A stretch of DNA of 48,263 nt from a virus (lineage: Duplodnaviria; Heunggongvirae; Uroviricota; Caudoviricetes), in the IMG/VR virus record IMGVR_UViG_2534681708_000006, positions 1-48,263 of that record; one strand, given 5' to 3'. Positions 1,553-40,835 of the stretch are shown here, piece after piece. The number at the start of each line of letters is the position of its first letter. The first letter of the stretch is position 1. Both the position numbers and the translations under genes were made by a program. The notes below the pieces were generated by a model. It ran no database searches and was not told the DNA's origin. It saw only the letters and a list, made by a program, of their open reading frames with translations.

Positions 1553-1741
1553 TCACGAGGACTGAAGTTTCTCGCAATTAAAATTTATCAGTTTTACTTT
1601 CTGCTCTCTGGAAACGCCTGCTTCTTTTTTACCTGAGAGCATTTTTTCGCATTCTGATTTGGTTAATTTTGTTTTTGAGTACCTTGTCCAGTTAGTAGGA
1701 GTGCCACCTTCCTTTTCAATAGTGGCAGTAATTTTATACAT
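1553..1741 (-). CDS. Small hypothetical protein (YdaC-like position)
   Basis: ORF-track frame 1553..1810; internal ATG (MYKITAT...) is preceded by GGAGGTG and overlaps the lar stop by 8 nt, so chosen as start. Confidence 0.4.
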   Translation of the reverse strand: MYKITATIEKEGGTPTNWTRYSKTKLTKSECEKMLSGKKEAGVSREQKVKLINFNCEKLQSS

Positions 1742-1991: not shown

Positions 1992-3044
1992 TCAGGAGCC
2001 GATATATTCTGGTTTCATATCTGTCAGTGTCGTTTTATACGCCTCATATAATTCTCCCAGATGTGGTCGTGCAGCATTCAGCGTATTTTCCAGAGCAGTA
2101 AATTTTTGTTCTGCTTCTGGATCACCTGATGAAGGCAGGTCATTTATCATCTTCTCAATACGGGCAATAGCATTGAGACGGTGATGACGCTGAACCACTT
2201 TTCCTTTAAGTTCTGTGTAGAGAGCGCCAAGTGTATTTTTATGATCTTCCACTTCTTGGCGAAGTGCTGTTGTTTCTCCGGTGCTTTGTGCCTGCTCAAT
2301 ACGTTCACGGAAAGCACTGATCCAGTTTTCCCCGGCATCCTGCTCAATAATTGTTGTTTCACGTTCCGCACGGCAGGCGGATGTGTTTTTATGTTCCTGA
2401 ACCGGATTAATGATTTTTTCCTGTGGTTCGTCCAGTTCGTCCCGGGTGTACACTCCAAGAATCACTTCAGGGCAATAAAGGCGCGCCCAGCGTTTCAGAG
2501 CCAGATAGGCAAGCTGCTGGCGAGGATCATCGGCCCATAACGTTGAGTTACGTGTTCTGGCCTGCGCCAGAAGTAACTCCAGTACGCGTGGCTTGCTCTC
2601 TCCGCGTAGTGTTGCCTGGACGCGAACACCGATCCCGTTTTCATCGGCCAGCTTCCAGCCAGGTACACGATATTCTTTCCCCTTGTCGTTCTTCCTGATT
2701 TCAAATTTCCCGATAATTTTTTCCCACGGCCCGAACCAGTCATATTCAATACGCCCGGTTAGCGGCCCACGAGTACTGATTACGGCATTAACCAGTTGCG
2801 CTTCATATCCGAGCACACCATTCACAACGAAAGTTTTCTGAGCTACTGCGTAAGGGTTCATTTGCCACTGCATCGCCTGCATGGTGATGGCCATGCAGTC
2901 TGATGGATTTCCCCGGAGGTGTTCCGGTACAGTAGCCATGCCGGAAGCCATTACCTGGGAAAATGTCTGAATTGCAGCCAGGGACTGAGGGCTGAAAACC
3001 GCAACATTAGAGTTAATATTTTCTTGTTGAGTTAATTCGTTCAT
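1992..3044 (-). CDS. Single-strand annealing protein, RecT/Red-beta superfamily (partner of RecE-like exonuclease)
   Basis: 350 aa; segment QWQMNPYAVAQKTFVVNGVLGYEAQ resembles the Red-beta core QYGLNPWTKEIYAF..NGIVPVVGVDGW; sits directly downstream of the exonuclease gene. Confidence 0.55.
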   Translation of the reverse strand: MNELTQQENINSNVAVFSPQSLAAIQTFSQVMASGMATVPEHLRGNPSDCMAITMQAMQWQMNPYAVAQKTFVVNGVLGYEAQLVNAVISTRGPLTGRIEYDWFGPWEKIIGKFEIRKNDKGKEYRVPGWKLADENGIGVRVQATLRGESKPRVLELLLAQARTRNSTLWADDPRQQLAYLALKRWARLYCPEVILGVYTRDELDEPQEKIINPVQEHKNTSACRAERETTIIEQDAGENWISAFRERIEQAQSTGETTALRQEVEDHKNTLGALYTELKGKVVQRHHRLNAIARIEKMINDLPSSGDPEAEQKFTALENTLNAARPHLGELYEAYKTTLTDMKPEYIGS

Positions 3045-3055
3045 TGTGTCCTTCC

Positions 3056-6000
3056 TCAGATGCTCAGTGCTTCAAGACGACGAAGATCAAAGTCGTTTAA
3101 TTCGGCGGTATAACTTTCGGTAATCGGTGCTGGCCAGTTGTTTGTCTCCAGAGCTTCATTTATCTGTCGTAGCGTCCGGCGATATTCCTGTCGACCAAGT
3201 TCCAGGAGTTCCTGCGAGGCTTCCACGACGGCCACCCAGTGATAGCCAGCATCTTTGTTGACGAAGATCCAGAAAAATTTGTCCAGGTTTGCCACATCGC
3301 AATACATTGCTGCGCTGAGGTGATAATCACGCTCAATAATTTCACGGTGCAGGCGATCTTTCAGTCGTTCCTGTCGCACATAACCGAGGCTGACTGACTT
3401 CACGTCGGCGCAAATGCTTTCGTATGGCAGCCGGATTTCGATATCAGGACGGACCCTGATTTCCAGCCCGGTTTCTTCATCAAAACCGAAATAGCTGATT
3501 TCAGATTTGCGATCCGGGTGGTTGAGTAGCCTTGCTGCATCGGTATTGTTTTGCAGTGCAGCGTGAATATTTTTTGCCTGTTCATACATATCCGGACTGA
3601 TAAACGTTTTCCCGGCGTTTTCTTCTTGCTGGCGTTTTTGCCAGTCTTCCAGTGTCACCAGTTCCGGGCGAATTTTCCGTGCGATTTCGGTTAATTGCTC
3701 TTTTGTGCCACTGATGTTGTAAGGCAAAGATTTAGCACGTTCTTTTTTTGCCAGTTCTGGATCTACAGTTTCAATTTGCTCCAGAAGTTGCTCCCGTGAT
3801 CCACTGGTTTTCAACAGAGGAGGGAGGTTTGCGTTGTATTCTTTAATACAGGCTTTCATTGCTGATGCTGTGTGTTTTTCCCCCTCAGGAATACGCCGGA
3901 ATTCCTCCGGAAGCGAACCGTAAAGGATGCCCGTTTCTTCGGCCCCGGCACTTACCGACAGTGGCTGTATAAGAGTGCTGTTGTAGCTTTCGATCCACTC
4001 TTTCATCTGTTCTGGTGTCATCGGTGCTGGCAGACTGGCATTGTGTTTTTTAATGATGGCGATCAGTTCGTTAGAAGTAGTAACCACATATTCAGGAACC
4101 GGTACCGGAATGGCATACTCATCAGCGAATTTATCCGTTTCCAGAACATAGCTGTGAATAATCCGTCCACGCAGCAATGCATCACTTTCCTCGCCCGGAA
4201 TAGTTCCGGCAATGTGCCGTCCGTGGTAATACATCAGGCTGATGCGGGCATCCTTCAGCATTGTGCTGCTTATGCCGTTGGCGGAGTGATAAACCTCGTT
4301 CGGGAGGTTTTCATAGCGGCCAGGCTCGAAATATGACGGCCACATGATTTCAGTTGCTACATGAGCTGACGCTTCACCAGTTTCATCACTGCAATCGTGA
4401 TGCGGATGGTTGCCAGCGTTCTCCTTGTGCGGATGTTCAGCGCCTTCCATTTCCTCCGGATCATTTTCCTTAGCTTCAACCTGATTCTCTTCATCGAATG
4501 TTTCCTGGTATGTTGCGTCGCCCATTACCGCACCACAGTCAGGGCAGTTATCCCCGCCAGTCTGACCGCAGGCATTGCAGACTATTTCCGGTTTCTGTTG
4601 CACTACTGGCTCAGGTTGTTTCACATCCGGGCTGGTTTTTACAGTTTCTGGCGTGTTTTGTTCCGTTTCTGGCTGGTTCTGGTACACAGAGTCGCGAGTC
4701 TGGATCCCCTTTACCCATTTCGGATCGTTCGGGTCGCTAATCCCTTCAACGAACTCACCACGCGAGGCAGCCAGCAATTTGTCGGCATCGACAGGATTTT
4801 TTGATGGAATGTTTTTCCGGGCTTCATGGAGTTCTGCCCGCAGTTCCTGATATTTCGCATCAGCAGAATTTACCTGTGACTGAGCATCCAGCGGCTGCGT
4901 GTCCTGATGATGTTCAGTTGCATCCGGTTCCACTGTTTCAGCCGTTGCCTGTTCATCTGCCATTGCGCAAGATGGTTGCAGTTTTTCTTCATCATCCTGT
5001 TTTTCTTCTTCTGTTACACGCTGCGGCATCGGGGCAGAGGAACGACCGCAGGCAATATCCACGATTACCGGATCAGGGTTGGCATGATCAGTTTCAGTCA
5101 GTACTTTGTTCAGATATTCAGTGACGTGTGCGGGGATAACCTCGATCCCAATTGGTGCTTCTTTTACGGACGCAACCACGATGGCGCGGGAATAATCCAG
5201 CCCGCCAGGCATGGTGATGAATTTGTCGCGAAAAACAGAAAAGGGCGGTTTATTTTCAGCGATAATTTCCTCGACACGTTTAGCGTGTGCCGGATGAAGG
5301 TTATAAATGTCCACGTCCATTGAACGAGCCAGTACGCCAGTGGCTACGTCGCGCGCCAGTGACGTCAGATCGTGAACGAAACCTTCGCCGCGATCGGTGA
5401 GGTTCCCGCCGCCAGCATTAGCGCCGGAAGCTGTGCGCGTGATGCGTGAAACACGATTTCCTTTCATCCACTCTTTTGTCAGCAGACTGCGATCGGTGTA
5501 GTCTGCGTCCAGGCATGCTTCGAAAAAAGCAGTCATCAGCCCCAAGCTTGAATTGCCTGGATTAGGGAAAACGCTGTCAGTATCACGCACCAGTTTGTGG
5601 AGATCGCGAATTTCCAGTGGATCGAGCAGGCTGGTTTTGTGGGAAACAGCCAGGGCTGTAACAGCTGGTAGTTCCTCAGCCCGTGCAATGTGTAATGCCT
5701 GGAGTTCGTCGCGTGAAACGTGCGTTACCGGTTTTTCGCTGCCGTGTTGAGCAAGCCAGCGAATGGGAAGCTCCTGGCCAGAAATCGGGAGTAGCATATT
5801 CTCCTCAATCTCCGTCATGTCTTCGCCATTAACATTGGTATTGTCAGTGCTGGCTGGTTTGTCCTGCGCAGAGGGTGAGGGCGCGATAAATACCATTGTG
5901 ATGCCATCTTCCCCGCCTTTTTCGTAACGGTTGCAGAATTCCGTATCAAATACGCCTTCTGGCGGGAGGTCATCAACAACGGGCAAATTGACGCGAACAG

Positions 6001-6181
6001 GTTTTTTGAAGTCATCTTCATCGTATCCAGCATCGTCAATCGCAACAGCACCACGGGAGATGGCAATGGATAATTTTTTCGCTTCAGCCCAGTAAAAACC
6101 GCCTTTAATACCGAGACGTTTTCTTACTTTGTCATTTTTTGCTTCGTAATACAGTGGGTAAACTTGTTTGTCGGTGCTCAT
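3056..6181 (-). CDS. recE: RecE-like exodeoxyribonuclease VIII with divergent C-terminal PD-(D/E)xK nuclease domain
   Basis: 1041 aa; N-terminal ~600 aa match my memory of E. coli RecE ([40 protein letters not shown]...); C-terminal part differs but keeps a D...E.K nuclease pattern (RPDIEI...ADVKSV). Confidence 0.8.
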
Positions 6182-6752: not shown

Positions 6753-6967
6753 GACTCTGCTTTTACAGGTAAACCATCACGACCGAGGAAGACTTTAATC
6801 ATGCGGTCAGAAATGCATGTTTTTGTAGTCAGGCTCCGAATATAAAGTTTTCGCTTTTTAATATTGTTTGCCGAGGCGATATATGTCCGACCTTCATGAA
6901 GAACATAATCGCCAGGGGTCACACACTGACGTGGTATTTCATCAGTTCCGAAGTGATGAGCAATCAT
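6746..6967 (-). CDS. kilR: KilR-like cell-division (FtsZ) inhibitor
   Basis: 73-aa product from internal ATG ([21 protein letters not shown]...) with GGAGAT RBS; recalled as Rac KilR; position between recE and the immunity region. Confidence 0.6.
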
Positions 6968-7302
6968 AATTATCTCCATTTTTACAAATGAATTTTGTCG
7001 ATGCGGTGCCTGGTGCCTCCAGGTGACGTTAACCAGTTAACAATTAACGCCGGATAATCCACCCATAACACTGATGCTTTTAACTGTGCCGCGTGCGCTT
7101 AGCCGCATTCACCGCATCACAAAATTCACTTTAAAAAGGGCAGACATCAGTCGTACTTCAAGAAAAAACTGATGCCGCCAAGACTACACACAGCAGTGTT
7201 GTTATTCACAACCGGAGGCGCACTCCCACCATTTAAATTTCACAGACAAGACCGACTCTTTATGGATACCGGAAATGCGCCTTCGTGTTGTATGCCTGTC
7301 TT

Positions 7303-7330
7303 TTTACCACTTCAGGCTCGGTGGTATACT
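7303..7330 (+). promoter_or_regulatory. Candidate sigma-70 promoter (TTTACC -N16- TATACT) for the plus-strand small gene
   Basis: Hexamers read directly about 35 nt upstream of ATG 7363; coordinates approximate. Confidence 0.35.
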
Positions 7331-7362
7331 GGAGTTCTCACACAACCAGTAAGGAATTGCTT

Positions 7363-7596
7363 ATGCCTATTCAATCTCAACACAAAAATATTGATTATCT
7401 TTCCGCCAGATTAGAGGCTACCACGCTTGTTCTTGAAGAATTTGTTAAACTTCTTACGCCAGAGCAGCGTGAAAAACTGAATCTGGCAATTGCCGGGCGT
7501 TGTCCGGGCGTGAAAAATGCGTCTCTCAGGAATAGAAATTCTCCCGCATATCAATTATTACAGTTCATCAATGATGGCGTCCGCAGCAGCGATTAA
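7363..7596 (+). CDS. Small hypothetical protein (77 aa), convergent with the early-left operon
   Basis: ATG with AGGA RBS inside ORF 7285..7596; occupies the slot where Rac/lambda carry sieB; soluble, no TM segment, so not SieB itself. Confidence 0.4.
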   Translation: MPIQSQHKNIDYLSARLEATTLVLEEFVKLLTPEQREKLNLAIAGRCPGVKNASLRNRNSPAYQLLQFINDGVRSSD

Positions 7597-7863
7597 TTTT
7601 TCTAATGCCTCTTCGACATGATAATTGTATGGTTGTAGTGACCTGACATCTGTAATTGCATTAGCCAGGATTCGTGCCATTACGGCTGGTGCGATTTTTT
7701 TTGCTACTGATACCCGGCTGGCGAGTTCCAGTGCGAGACGTGCCTGCCTTGGAGTTAGCTCTCTCTCCTTTGCCATTGTTGATGCTTGTACAGACAATTC
7801 ATACGCCAGGCAAAATACAGCATTATTCGTTTCTGGCGGGTCAATACTCTGAGTAAATGTCAT
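7558..7863 (-). CDS. Hypothetical protein, first gene of the leftward early operon
   Basis: 101 aa; strong RBS AAGGGGAGAG; immediately downstream of a TTGACT-N17-TAATAT promoter. Confidence 0.5.
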   Translation of the reverse strand: MTFTQSIDPPETNNAVFCLAYELSVQASTMAKERELTPRQARLALELASRVSVAKKIAPAVMARILANAITDVRSLQPYNYHVEEALEKLIAAADAIIDEL

Positions 7864-7930
7864 CTTATCTCTCCCCTTAACGCCGGGTGGCGGAACTAAA
7901 ACCTACAGCGCCGTGCTGTTCTTGATAGAA

Positions 7931-7959
7931 ATATTAGTAATACGGATATTTCAAGTCAA
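7931..7959 (-). promoter_or_regulatory. pL-like early-left promoter (TTGACT -N17- TAATAT on minus strand)
   Basis: Near-consensus -35/-10 with 17-nt spacer upstream of gene 7558..7863. Confidence 0.5.
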
Positions 7960-8056: not shown

Positions 8057-8087
8057 AAAAAAACCGACTAAGACGTCGGTTTTTTTT
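8057..8087. terminator. Bidirectional intrinsic terminator (A7 - CCGAC/GTCGG hairpin - T8)
   Basis: Short GC stem flanked by an A-run and a T-run, just downstream of the racR stop. Confidence 0.5.
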
Positions 8088-8113: not shown

Positions 8114-8575
8114 CTACTGGTTGCGTTTCTTTAGTGCCAGCATGTTCTCGAAGGCTTCCTCGTAGAGCTTGTTTAGTCCACGTAGCTGGTTAAGGAGTTT
8201 GGCTTTTTCTGACGCAGGTAGAATCTCGAAGAGGTTAAGTAACTCTGCCTGTTCTTCATTGACCAGCCTCCATCCTTTGCCTGAAAAGCTATCATCATAA
8301 GTATCTGATGATCTTACATAATTCATTAAGTCTTTAAGGTCTTCTCGAATGTCCTCTGGTTTTACCTTTAACAGAGCCGCAAATTTTAGCGCAGCGTCGG
8401 TATTTACCGGTATCTTGCCGTTCAGATACTGACTAACGGTGCCTTGAGATTCGAATCCCAACAACTCAGCCGCCAGCTCTTGAGTCAGCTTCAGCTCTTT
8501 TTTTCTTGCATTCCATGCGGCTTTTAAATTCTTGCTCGCTTCTGGAGTTGCAATCACGTCACGTGTTTTTTTCAT
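8114..8575 (-). CDS. racR: RacR-like prophage repressor (N-terminal HTH)
   Basis: 153 aa; HTH segment LTQELAAELLGFESQGTVSQYLNGK; divergent from a Cro-like gene. Confidence 0.8.
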   Translation of the reverse strand: MKKTRDVIATPEASKNLKAAWNARKKELKLTQELAAELLGFESQGTVSQYLNGKIPVNTDAALKFAALLKVKPEDIREDLKDLMNYVRSSDTYDDSFSGKGWRLVNEEQAELLNLFEILPASEKAKLLNQLRGLNKLYEEAFENMLALKKRNQ

Positions 8576-14965: not shown

Positions 14966-15252
14966 TAACACTTCCTTAATTTTTCCTTAACAATTTAGGG
15001 TGCTAAACTTCTTTGCGCAGTTTACACAAAAAAATAGTGCGTACGCAAAAACTATCTAACATGATGAGCTTTAACCGGGAAATTTGTATATGTTGTGAGC
15101 ATAAAGTTGGCTGAGAAATCTAAAACGGGTCGAATGACTACGGGTGCTTGAGGCTATCTGCCTCGGGCATGCCACCAAAGGCCGATAGAGAAAAGTCCCA
15201 GTTAACATTACGCGTCCTGCAAGACGCTTAACATTAATCTGAGGATATATCT

Positions 15253-15312
15253 ATGACTTGCACCTATAGGTTACCTCTTACGTGCCGAAAGGCAAGGAGA
15301 AGCGGGCTATGA
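15253..15312 (+). CDS. mok-like leader ORF (19 codons) translationally coupled to hok
   Basis: ATG with GAGGA RBS; its TGA stop overlaps the hok ATG (ATGA). Confidence 0.3.
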   Translation: MTCTYRLPLTCRKARRSGL

Positions 15313-15464
15313 AGCAGCAAAAGGCGATGTTACTCGCTCTAATCGTCATCTGTTTAACCGTCATAGTGACGGTACTGGTAACGTGGAAAGACCTCTGCGA
15401 GGTGCGAATCCGAACCGGTCAGACGGAGATCGCTGTCTTCACAGTTTACGAACCTGAGGAGTAA
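15309..15464 (+). CDS. hok: Hok/Gef-family type I toxin (small membrane host-killing peptide)
   Basis: 51-aa translation MKQQKAMLLALIVICLTVIVTVLVTWKDLCEVRIRTGQTEIAVFTVYEPEE, near-identical to my recollection of HokD/HokC; AAGGAG RBS. Confidence 0.85.
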   Translation: MKQQKAMLLALIVICLTVIVTVLVTWKDLCEVRIRTGQTEIAVFTVYEPEE

Positions 15465-40498: not shown

Positions 40499-40835
40499 AG
40501 TAACCTCTTTTGGCTTTTTTCGAATTGCCACTAACGTAGTGGCGCCGGGAGGTTCGAAACGGCCCAAAAGATACCGCGGACTTATTCCCCTTTCGGGTGT
40601 TGTATTCGTCGCCCTCCCGACATTGATCGGGGTTGTGATCGCACATATTGCCATCACAAAAAAAAGGCATAAAAAAACCAACACATTGTAGGGTGCTGGG
40701 TAATCAGCTTTTGGGGGAGGTTTCGACGCCTCATGCGTCCAATCATACTCAACTGGGCGCGGTTGTAAAGTATGAACTTGAACAGACATTAAGAATGGGT
40801 AAAATTTGTTCTCCTGTTTTATAAGGAGATTAAGG

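Follow-up and report, generated by a model that had tools for sequence, protein, structure and literature searches.

The stretch of DNA analysed here, referred to as the window, comprises 48,263 nt of the IMG/VR record IMGVR_UViG_2534681708_000006, and all positions are counted on it. By its sequence the window is a Rac-like lambdoid prophage, with the region of interest in the early-left arm. Between positions 7100 and 7900 it is 98.3% identical to phage Rac-SA53, and the names rac10 (7363-7596, plus strand) and rac11 (7558-7863, minus strand) are taken from the annotation of that phage, where both are listed as "hypothetical protein". The two genes converge and overlap at their 3' ends by 39 nt (7558-7596, both strands), and rac10 is preceded by a sieB-type control element (7294-7362, plus strand) that is conserved across genera and also across unrelated genes, or cargos, that follow it. 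Comparison loci are designated by L-numbers.

rac10 and the sieB slot

rac10 is a genuine protein-coding gene. It encodes a basic (pI 9.0), soluble protein of 77 aa that is predicted to be all-helical, and a Shine-Dalgarno sequence (AAGGA, 7351-7355) lies 7 nt ahead of its ATG. The open reading frame (ORF) is intact at 77 aa in every copy of the cassette (31/31), and the other five frames over it contain 1-5 stops. The ratio of non-synonymous to synonymous substitution rates (dN/dS) is 0.24 relative to the most diverged E. coli-type copy (L006; ~18% nucleotide divergence, 41/234 nt) and 0.20-0.24 outside the overlap. A profile search of 1.8 billion representative proteins returned rac10 relatives of 78-90 aa, and a second profile search recovered a family of ~30 clusters in Escherichia, Salmonella, Enterobacter, Klebsiella, Pantoea and Yersinia with the conserved core RLEA..LVLEEL..LL(T/S)PEQR.KL..AI..R.P.VKNAS...YQL. 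These results uphold the initial annotation, which had proposed a 77-aa ORF with a ribosome binding site (RBS) and a 39-nt overlap with the gene at 7558-7863.

Homology searches and structure prediction placed this ORF, which is conserved in Enterobacterales, in no known family, fold or defence model. Against Pfam, PHROGs, PADLOC and NCBIfam, both Rac10 and Rac11 yielded sub-threshold noise only (LTXXQ, NrfF, dehydrogenases), and a profile search of the PDB gave nothing under E = 0.9. The AlphaFold2 (AF2) model of Rac10 consists of four helices and is of modest confidence (predicted local distance difference test, pLDDT, 72); Foldseek comparison of the Rac10 and Rac11 models with the PDB found generic or designed helical bundles only, none at E <= 0.001. 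The LTXXQ family (CpxP/Spy, PF07813) was considered for Rac10 and rejected, as its match (16.3 bits versus a cutoff of 24.3) consists of the LLTPEQREKL motif only and Rac10 does not begin with a hydrophobic stretch; a 378-aa LTXXQ repeat protein in the profile search matches the rac10 family through this motif alone. No SieB family match for Rac10 was found in Pfam, NCBIfam or PHROG. Over 19-residue stretches the Kyte-Doolittle hydropathy peaks at 0.87 in Rac10 versus 2.19 in K-12 SieB, and Rac10 has no transmembrane segment, which agrees with its earlier description as a short soluble protein unrelated to SieB. A literature search for the protein accession numbers gave no match.

Leftward from a DicA/RacR-type repressor gene, the window carries the 101-aa ORF rac11 (7558-7863, minus strand), kilR, ydaE, racC and a 1041-aa recE, and the rightward genes are cro-like/ydaS, ydaT and ydaU. 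In K-12 Rac the interval from kilR to racR holds sieB (plus strand), ydaF (minus strand) and a ydaG-like gene (minus strand), the same backbone occurs minus sieB in another E. coli strain, and in lambda sieB is convergent with N. Compared with K-12 Rac, lambda, P22 and HK620, rac10 occupies the same slot, that of a gene running rightward after kil/ral and converging with the first early-left gene. The earlier placement of the ORF at a sieB-equivalent position, transcribed against the early-left operon, is therefore sustained: K-12 Rac and lambda hold sieB there, and rac11 runs leftward as the first early-left coding sequence (CDS). The window shows strong homology to K-12 Rac up to ~7291; this is degenerate to 7325 and absent until 7861, where it restarts for 39 nt (7861-7899), which is exactly the rac11 start codon and 5' untranslated region (UTR). 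As K-12 Rac homology ends and restarts at its borders, the segment 7326-7860 is a discrete replacement of sieB-ydaF-ydaG.

The predicted promoter of rac10 is its own, opposite in orientation to the surrounding operon and conserved across genera and cargos, and by these features rac10, at the sieB slot of this Rac-like lambdoid prophage, is classed as a moron, meaning an accessory gene carried by a prophage. The orientation of this promoter, together with the intact ORF in prophages in which rac11 is broken, suggests that rac10 is expressed in the lysogen. The complete cassette is rare, being present in 18 of 5,426 complete E. coli genomes and in 1 of 50,697 phage records; none was found in plasmids. 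It adjoins three repressor types (153, 139 and 162 aa) and is thus independent of immunity type.

A portable control element

A promoter scan of the element found a -35 hexamer (TTTACC, 7303-7308) and, after a spacer of 16 nt, an extended -10 (TGgTATACT, 7322-7330, with TG at 7322-7323 and TATACT at 7325-7330), all on the plus strand. The region is AT-rich, and 1.8 kb contained 7 promoter-like sites versus 3.6 +/- 1.7 in shuffled sequences, so that a single match is not above chance. What makes the predicted promoter meaningful is its conservation rather than the scan match alone: TTNNCC-N16/17-TGGTATNCT recurs upstream of rac10 homologues and of other cargos in several genera. The promoter TTTACC-N16-TATACT of the initial annotation was thus recovered at 7303-7330, with the extended -10 TG added, and its conservation established.

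The 24-nt core of the element occurs nowhere else in the window, and the number of chance matches expected is 0. In loci of Pantoea and Yersinia, 63 nt (-72 to -10) are 94-95% identical to the window, whereas the CDS of the same loci show 58-59% nucleotide and 46-49% protein identity and the DNA farther upstream is unrelated. A search of public contigs with the core motif gave 155 loci. The small ORFs (58-164 aa) that follow the element in them belong to at least 28 unrelated families, and the spacing from element to ATG is almost constant. The cargos differ in size and fold, with zinc ribbons and membrane proteins among them, and the most frequent family is that of rac10 (31 of the 155 loci). 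Searched against Pfam and PHROGs, the other cargos and their partners matched a zinc ribbon, a ClpX-type zinc finger and otherwise only families to which no function is assigned. A looser motif pattern returned mostly chance matches on contigs; nine were element-like, and eight of these, in or near Enterobacterales, stand ahead of a cargo ORF.

Cargos at the sieB slot are under-annotated. In Cronobacter phage phiES15 (L278, ~1801-2140) the element is present, and the plus-strand gene after it is unannotated while only the convergent 96-aa partner is annotated; cargos that follow the element are often missed in this way. In Shigella phage SfII (L277, 1801-2062) the element is followed by a gene for a 64-aa hypothetical protein. 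Separately, the L006 locus has an extra 69-aa ORF (5666-5875, plus strand) directly upstream of the control element, at a place where the window has Rac backbone.

Two pairings in the 5' part of the element interleave, namely pairing 1 (GCCTG/CAGGC, 7294-7298/7313-7317) and pairing 2 (ACCAC/GTGGT, 7306-7310/7321-7325). Downstream of them lies a further hairpin (hereafter hairpin 2; ACTGG/CCAGT, 7328-7332/7346-7350, plus strand, loop AGTTCTCACACAA), for which covariation was found: 19 different arm sequences stay complementary (e.g. GCTGG/CCAGC, TCTTGG/CCAAGA, CCTTTTA/TAAAAGG, CCTTCTT/AAGAAGG), and the mean stem is 5.1 bp versus 3.06 in shuffled sequences. The covariation was counted with an anchored script, as a MAFFT alignment misplaced stems of unequal length. 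The 5' arm shares bases with the -10 hexamer (its positions 4-6), and the Shine-Dalgarno sequence is adjacent to the 3' arm or contained in it, so that the covariation links the predicted -10 to the Shine-Dalgarno. Since the 5' arm precedes the predicted start site, only read-through transcripts could occlude the RBS.

Thermodynamic folding of either strand of 7286-7368 was no better than that of shuffled sequences (z = 0.30 and -0.02), and it is therefore the covariation that argues for structure in the element. A strand test in hairpin 2 gave 21 G:U versus 20 A:C counts, the same complementarity being present in the antisense RNA. Rfam returned no family match at the control element.

Homology to the sieB leader and the sas RNA

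The 5' part of the element is shared with sieB itself. A BLAST search with the 75-nt element matched 140 phage records, including lambda, P22, HK620, SfII and SfV, and window positions 7293-7325 are 94% identical to the region upstream of sieB in lambda and P22, where the block GCCTGTCTTTTAACCAC(A/G)TCAGGCTCGGTGGT lies ~50-100 nt ahead of the gene. The homologous part has the form GCCTGTCTTTT-ACCAC-N-TCAGGCTCG-GTGGT, and in P22 this block lies within the sas RNA. Because of this homology, the assignment to the sieB slot is stronger than a positional one.

The P22 sas RNA is listed with a 127-nt sequence in a small-RNA survey of 2026 (PMC13397905 Table 2). As summarized in later accounts, it is an antisense RNA that switches sieB translation from SieB to the inhibitor Esc (Ranade & Poteete 1993, via PMC12197685 and PMC7067206). 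Its sequence corresponds to the reverse complement of a stretch of P22 DNA that extends from the start codon of sieB across the leader and the homologous ACCAC..GUGGU..AAAAGACAGGC block. As the conserved block coincides with this sas/sieB leader, the window carries a shorter variant of the sieB control region, in which only the 3' domain of sas has a homologous counterpart. Past GGTGGT the two types part: the window type has a TATNCT -10 and one covarying hairpin, whereas in the type found in lambda, P22 and K-12 Rac the hairpins are TCTCG..CGAGA and their loops CCCCTACAG.

By homology to P22 sas, the template of a predicted sas-like antisense RNA would lie at 7286-7368 (minus strand), on the early-left transcript. 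A leftward transcript through 7368-7286 would by construction cover the start codon, the Shine-Dalgarno sequence and the leader of rac10. Read leftward, the conserved block has the potential to fold into an H-type pseudoknot with favourable loop lengths (ACCAC-CGA-GCCUG-AA-GUGGU-AAAAAGA-CAGGC), and K-12 Rac has a compensatory GCCCGG/CCGGGC version of the pseudoknot pairing. A scan found neither a leftward promoter nor a leftward terminator inside 7290-7460. In HK620 (L279) the terminator tL1 is annotated at 1995-2018 (minus strand), inside the 5' part of the sieB-like gene and, leftward, just before the conserved element; given this position, leftward transcription of a sas-like region would require antitermination.

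A convergent partner with a cargo-specific C-terminal half

In every genus seen, the rac10 homologue is convergent with a gene of 92-101 aa and overlaps it by 36-39 nt; loci of Enterobacter, Salmonella, Pantoea and Yersinia repeat the 39-nt length. Every substitution that separates diverged copies inside the overlap is synonymous for rac11 and non-synonymous for rac10, and the dN/dS of rac11 is 0.30. The gene has two halves of two helices each: the N-terminal half (7702-7863, minus strand) is an exchangeable module and opens the first CDS of the inferred early-left (pL-like) operon, and the C-terminal half (7558-7701, minus strand; about residues 55-101) co-varies with the cargo. The AF2 model of Rac11 is a four-helix bundle (pLDDT 75; predicted template modelling score, pTM, 0.67), and its two helical hairpins match the two modules.

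Across the 155 loci the convergent partners are chimeric, combining one of a few N-terminal types with C-terminal halves of ~40-45 residues that follow the cargo. Shared N-terminal types are the rac11-N type, 'MEFKDLPxEVQ' and 'ELKHVIALLLEDAKR'. In L034 and L182 the rac10-family cargo keeps a rac11-C-like tail beside a foreign N-terminal half, and in cargo cluster 5 one tail is joined to three N-types. With overlap-encoded residues removed, no C-type (0) was common to any two of 16 cargo clusters (adjusted mutual information, AMI, 0.95), and three N-types were each common to 3-4 cargo clusters (AMI 0.77). As its C-terminal half co-varies with the cargo, rac11 is not an innocent neighbour of rac10. 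An identification of rac11 as an N-type antiterminator was considered and rejected, because Rac11 is acidic and folded and a Yersinia locus has a separate Phage_N_antitermin gene downstream of the pair.

The junction of the rac11 halves coincides with an A8 run on the minus strand (T8 on plus, 7695-7702) that is a frameshift hotspot. Variants with A9 and A10 (T9/T10) truncate Rac11 to 67 or 36 aa, and rac10 stays at 77 aa in every case; the 67-aa form of Rac11 is found widely among E. coli assemblies, with 55 blocks of the collection listing it. This homopolymer may serve as a switch prone to slippage or may simply be a hotspot of decay. Either way, rac11 has been broken repeatedly and rac10 never, which fits a gene that benefits the lysogen with a partner needed only in lytic growth. 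The persistence of rac10 without an intact rac11 also argues against rac10 as a mere antidote to a Rac11 toxin. On the plus strand, a scan found a terminator-like hairpin with the T8 run at 7672-7703, downstream of rac10 and inside the rac11 CDS. It occurs in E. coli copies and is absent from L006 and from other genera, and was dropped as a defining part of the cassette because it is not conserved outside E. coli.

A possible exclusion pair and its precedents

The reading that we tentatively favour, and that in our view falls a little short of an even chance, is that rac10 is a lysogen-expressed exclusion or defence cargo, that the C-terminal half of Rac11 is its cognate neutraliser and that a sas-like antisense RNA provides an additional off-switch. 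It is favoured because the same architecture occurs in three experimental precedents, SieB/Esc/sas of P22, Tha/Ith and Tai/Ati. The first of these occupies the same slot, with sieB of P22 and lambda running rightward and convergent with the first early-left genes, and the accounts of the P22 system cited above give the same proposed logic of a lysogen exclusion factor, a self-escape factor and an antisense off-switch. The proteins themselves differ, as SieB has 162-192 aa and is membrane-associated whereas the 77-aa Rac10 is soluble and dissimilar to it, and while Esc is described in those accounts as an in-frame truncated SieB, the candidate neutraliser here is the C-terminal half of a separate convergent gene.

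[quoted passage not shown] Tha and Ith share neither sequence nor fold with Rac10, which has no recognisable domain. In phage phi80 and relatives, Tai is a constitutive prophage immune gene placed in opposite orientation in a lytic operon that encodes the adjacent cognate counter-defence protein Ati; cognate pairs bind each other, and the arrangement is a noncontiguous operon (PMC11364771). The cassette shares this layout, as rac10 is an opposite-strand gene in a lytic operon and overlaps a gene of that operon. The Tai/Ati genes differ in lying in a late operon upstream of packaging genes, their proteins are unrelated to those studied here, and no portable control element or chimeric partner is described there. 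The kind of system is therefore known, both as a prophage moron at the sieB position and as an immune/anti-immune noncontiguous operon. In the literature searched, neither the Rac10 and Rac11 families, nor portability of the sieB/sas element over at least 28 cargos, nor a cargo-specific C-terminal domain of a chimeric early protein was found; the P22 promoter and the ends of sas may be known in more detail from the 1993 papers.

What we infer about the time of expression, about the antisense RNA, about physical contact between Rac10 and Rac11 and about activity against phages is as follows. In the lysogen, rac10 would be transcribed rightward from the extended -10 promoter built into the sieB-type element, and such transcripts would lack the 5' arm of hairpin 2, leaving the Shine-Dalgarno sequence free. 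This predicted arrangement, with the 5' arm upstream of the start and the 3' arm at the Shine-Dalgarno so that only read-through could occlude the RBS, is reminiscent of the IS10 transposase hairpin, which provides "protection from outside transcription". Rac10 would then act on incoming phages by exclusion or abortive infection. Upon prophage induction, or during development of a related phage, leftward early transcription would collide with rac10 transcription and would yield a structured antisense RNA that spans the start codon and leader of rac10 and has its homologue in the 3' part of P22 sas. The same transcription would make Rac11, whose C-terminal two-helix half, as the cognate partner, could bind and neutralise Rac10 and so spare the phage's own lytic cycle.

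Several points weigh against this exclusion scheme. Rac10 lacks homology to known defence, toxin or antitoxin families as well as an informative fold match. The lambda/P22 sequence differs at the position of the window's -10, so that the predicted promoter would be specific to this variant of the element. The sas-like antisense RNA is predicted for this prophage from homology; folding energies are no better than those of shuffled sequences, and the near-equal G:U and A:C counts are as compatible with folding of one strand as of the other. In one locus (L249) a full-length rac11-like partner stands beside a different cargo, without overlap. Finally, the co-variation between cargo and partner half could reflect plain physical linkage around the overlap.

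Alternative explanations

The last of these points can be extended to a full alternative, in which rac10 is a lysogen-expressed accessory gene with another role, for example in host physiology or regulation, and the C-terminal half of the partner simply co-travels with it through the overlap and a mid-gene recombination joint. Lambdoid early-left genes commonly have mosaic joints at the borders between domains, as a paper on phage L notes for Erf; some cargo families (cargo cluster 2) have no overlapping partner, L249 combines a rac11-like protein with another cargo, and the intact rac10 genes beside frameshifted rac11 indicate that rac10 does not need Rac11 in the lysogen. Plain linkage could also give the observed pattern of cargo-specific C-types and shared N-types, which otherwise is that of cognate pairing. 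However, the co-varying stretch reaches ~40 residues past the 13 overlap-encoded residues, C-types are common to no two of the 16 cargo clusters while N-types are freely common, the 39-nt overlap is constant across genera at 46-49% protein identity, and the arrangement mirrors experimentally proven defence/anti-defence pairs. We therefore regard linkage as a serious possibility, though on balance an improbable one.

Alternatively, the polarity could be reversed, with Rac11-type proteins as early effectors of the lytic cycle whose C-terminal effector domain is polymorphic, and with the small plus-strand gene as the matching inhibitor, made by the lysogen, that guards against leaky expression or excludes superinfecting relatives through inactivation of their early protein. 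Polymorphic toxin-CT/immunity loci such as CdiA-CT/CdiI and Rhs-CT combine an exchangeable N-terminal part with a hypervariable C-terminal part that matches an adjacent small gene, and rac11, with its exchangeable N-terminal part and a variable C-terminal part matched to the adjacent cargo, resembles them. A constant-type N-terminal half, a variable C-terminal half and a small cognate gene next to it are the signature of such systems, and the constitutive-looking promoter does belong to the cargo, as it would for an inhibitor. Those loci are, however, arranged in tandem, while the genes here are convergent and overlapping, the variable part has only ~45 residues with no detectable toxin domain, and the constitutive-type predicted promoter serves the small gene and not the larger one. 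Two helices in ~45 residues would make a small effector, the cargos vary greatly in size and fold (zinc ribbons and membrane proteins are among them), and rac11 is frameshifted at the A8 tract in many genomes beside an intact rac10, whereas an immunity gene without its toxin should decay. A reversed polarity thus appears unlikely.

It is highly improbable that the ORF is untranslated and the plus-strand product an antisense RNA against the rac11 3' end and the early-left transcript, since, although such a transcript would be antisense to rac11 over at least 39 nt (up to ~140 nt if it ended at 7672-7703) and the constraint in the overlap follows the rac11 frame, the rac10 frame is under purifying selection outside the overlap with stops in all other frames, 46-49% protein identity is kept across genera with the DNA near saturation, the Shine-Dalgarno sequence is conserved at a fixed distance from the ATG and 0 of 31 copies are disrupted.

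Returning to the exclusion pair, it may perhaps be one case of a more general arrangement, a proposal that is speculative and that we consider rather doubtful at present. The sieB slot of enterobacterial lambdoid prophages would then be a plug-and-play site under one ~70-nt element that combines a promoter, an SD-occluding hairpin and, on the opposite strand, a pseudoknotted sas-like RNA. Dozens of unrelated small effectors would be exchanged at this site, each with its matching "key", a C-terminal domain of ~45 residues in the first early-left protein, forming polymorphic lock-and-key pairs for defence and self-immunity with at least 16-28 specificities, of which Rac10/Rac11-C would be the commonest. 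If this were true, the motif CCACNTCAGGC-N2-3-GGTGGTATNCT would be a search handle for dozens of small prophage-expressed proteins and their likely cognate inhibitors, and would provide a list of candidate exclusion/anti-exclusion pairs for E. coli, Salmonella, Klebsiella, Yersinia and relatives. Cargo type should in that case predict the C-terminal domain of the convergent early protein, and the 30-year-old SieB/Esc/sas paradigm of P22 would widen from one gene to a general regulatory cassette.

Surrounding features of the early-left arm

Upstream of rac11 on the minus strand, the 5' UTR (7864-7899; TTAACGCCGGGTGGCGGAACT) contains a hairpin (CGCC-ACCC-GGCG) just before the RBS. It is 100% identical in K-12 Rac, where it stands ahead of the unrelated ydaG-like gene, and is kept in L006, L007 and L018 (Pantoea prophage). 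This 5' UTR may be a conserved early-left leader element, e.g. a processing or nut-like site. Farther upstream, a promoter scan placed the inferred early-left (pL-like) promoter at 7928-7959 (TTGACT-17-TAATAT, minus strand), which overlaps operator-like repeats: a 15-nt repeat (AAATATTAGT[A/T]ATAC) occurs at 7929 and 8017, and a palindrome spans 7928-7952. These repeats may be operators for the repressor. The repressor gene itself (8114-8575, minus strand), which defines the immunity region to the right of the cassette, encodes a DicA/RacR-type protein (Pfam HTH_3, 1e-9) and is dicA in the Rac-SA53 annotation. Between it and the inferred pL lies a perfect 12-bp inverted repeat (8057-8086) flanked by A7 and T8 (AAAAAAACCGAC/GTCGGTTTTTTT), which looks like a bidirectional terminator that would end the repressor transcript.

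On the other side of the cassette, two small RNAs are predicted on the early-left (minus) strand between it and kilR, both with scores below gathering. One is a DicF-like small RNA (sRNA) with a terminator hairpin (7138-7192; 37.2 bits versus a gathering score of 48) and the other an STnc100-like RNA (6960-7148; 40.7 bits versus 47). Thousands of E. coli prophages match the 7100-7900 query over its first 42 nt, and in one phage record this match is labelled DicF. Also on the early-left side, recE (3056-6181, minus strand; 1041 aa) has a long acidic low-complexity central region, and in some related loci the protein is 823-904 aa long.

Elsewhere in the window, three RNAs scored above their gathering thresholds: the RalA antitoxin sRNA of the RalR/RalA type I toxin-antitoxin system of Rac (1557-1735, plus strand; 218.7 bits), the sok antitoxin RNA (15142-15314, plus strand; 91.5 bits), which implies a hok/sok module, and a match to sRNA-Xcc1 (40536-40621, minus strand; 72.5 bits).

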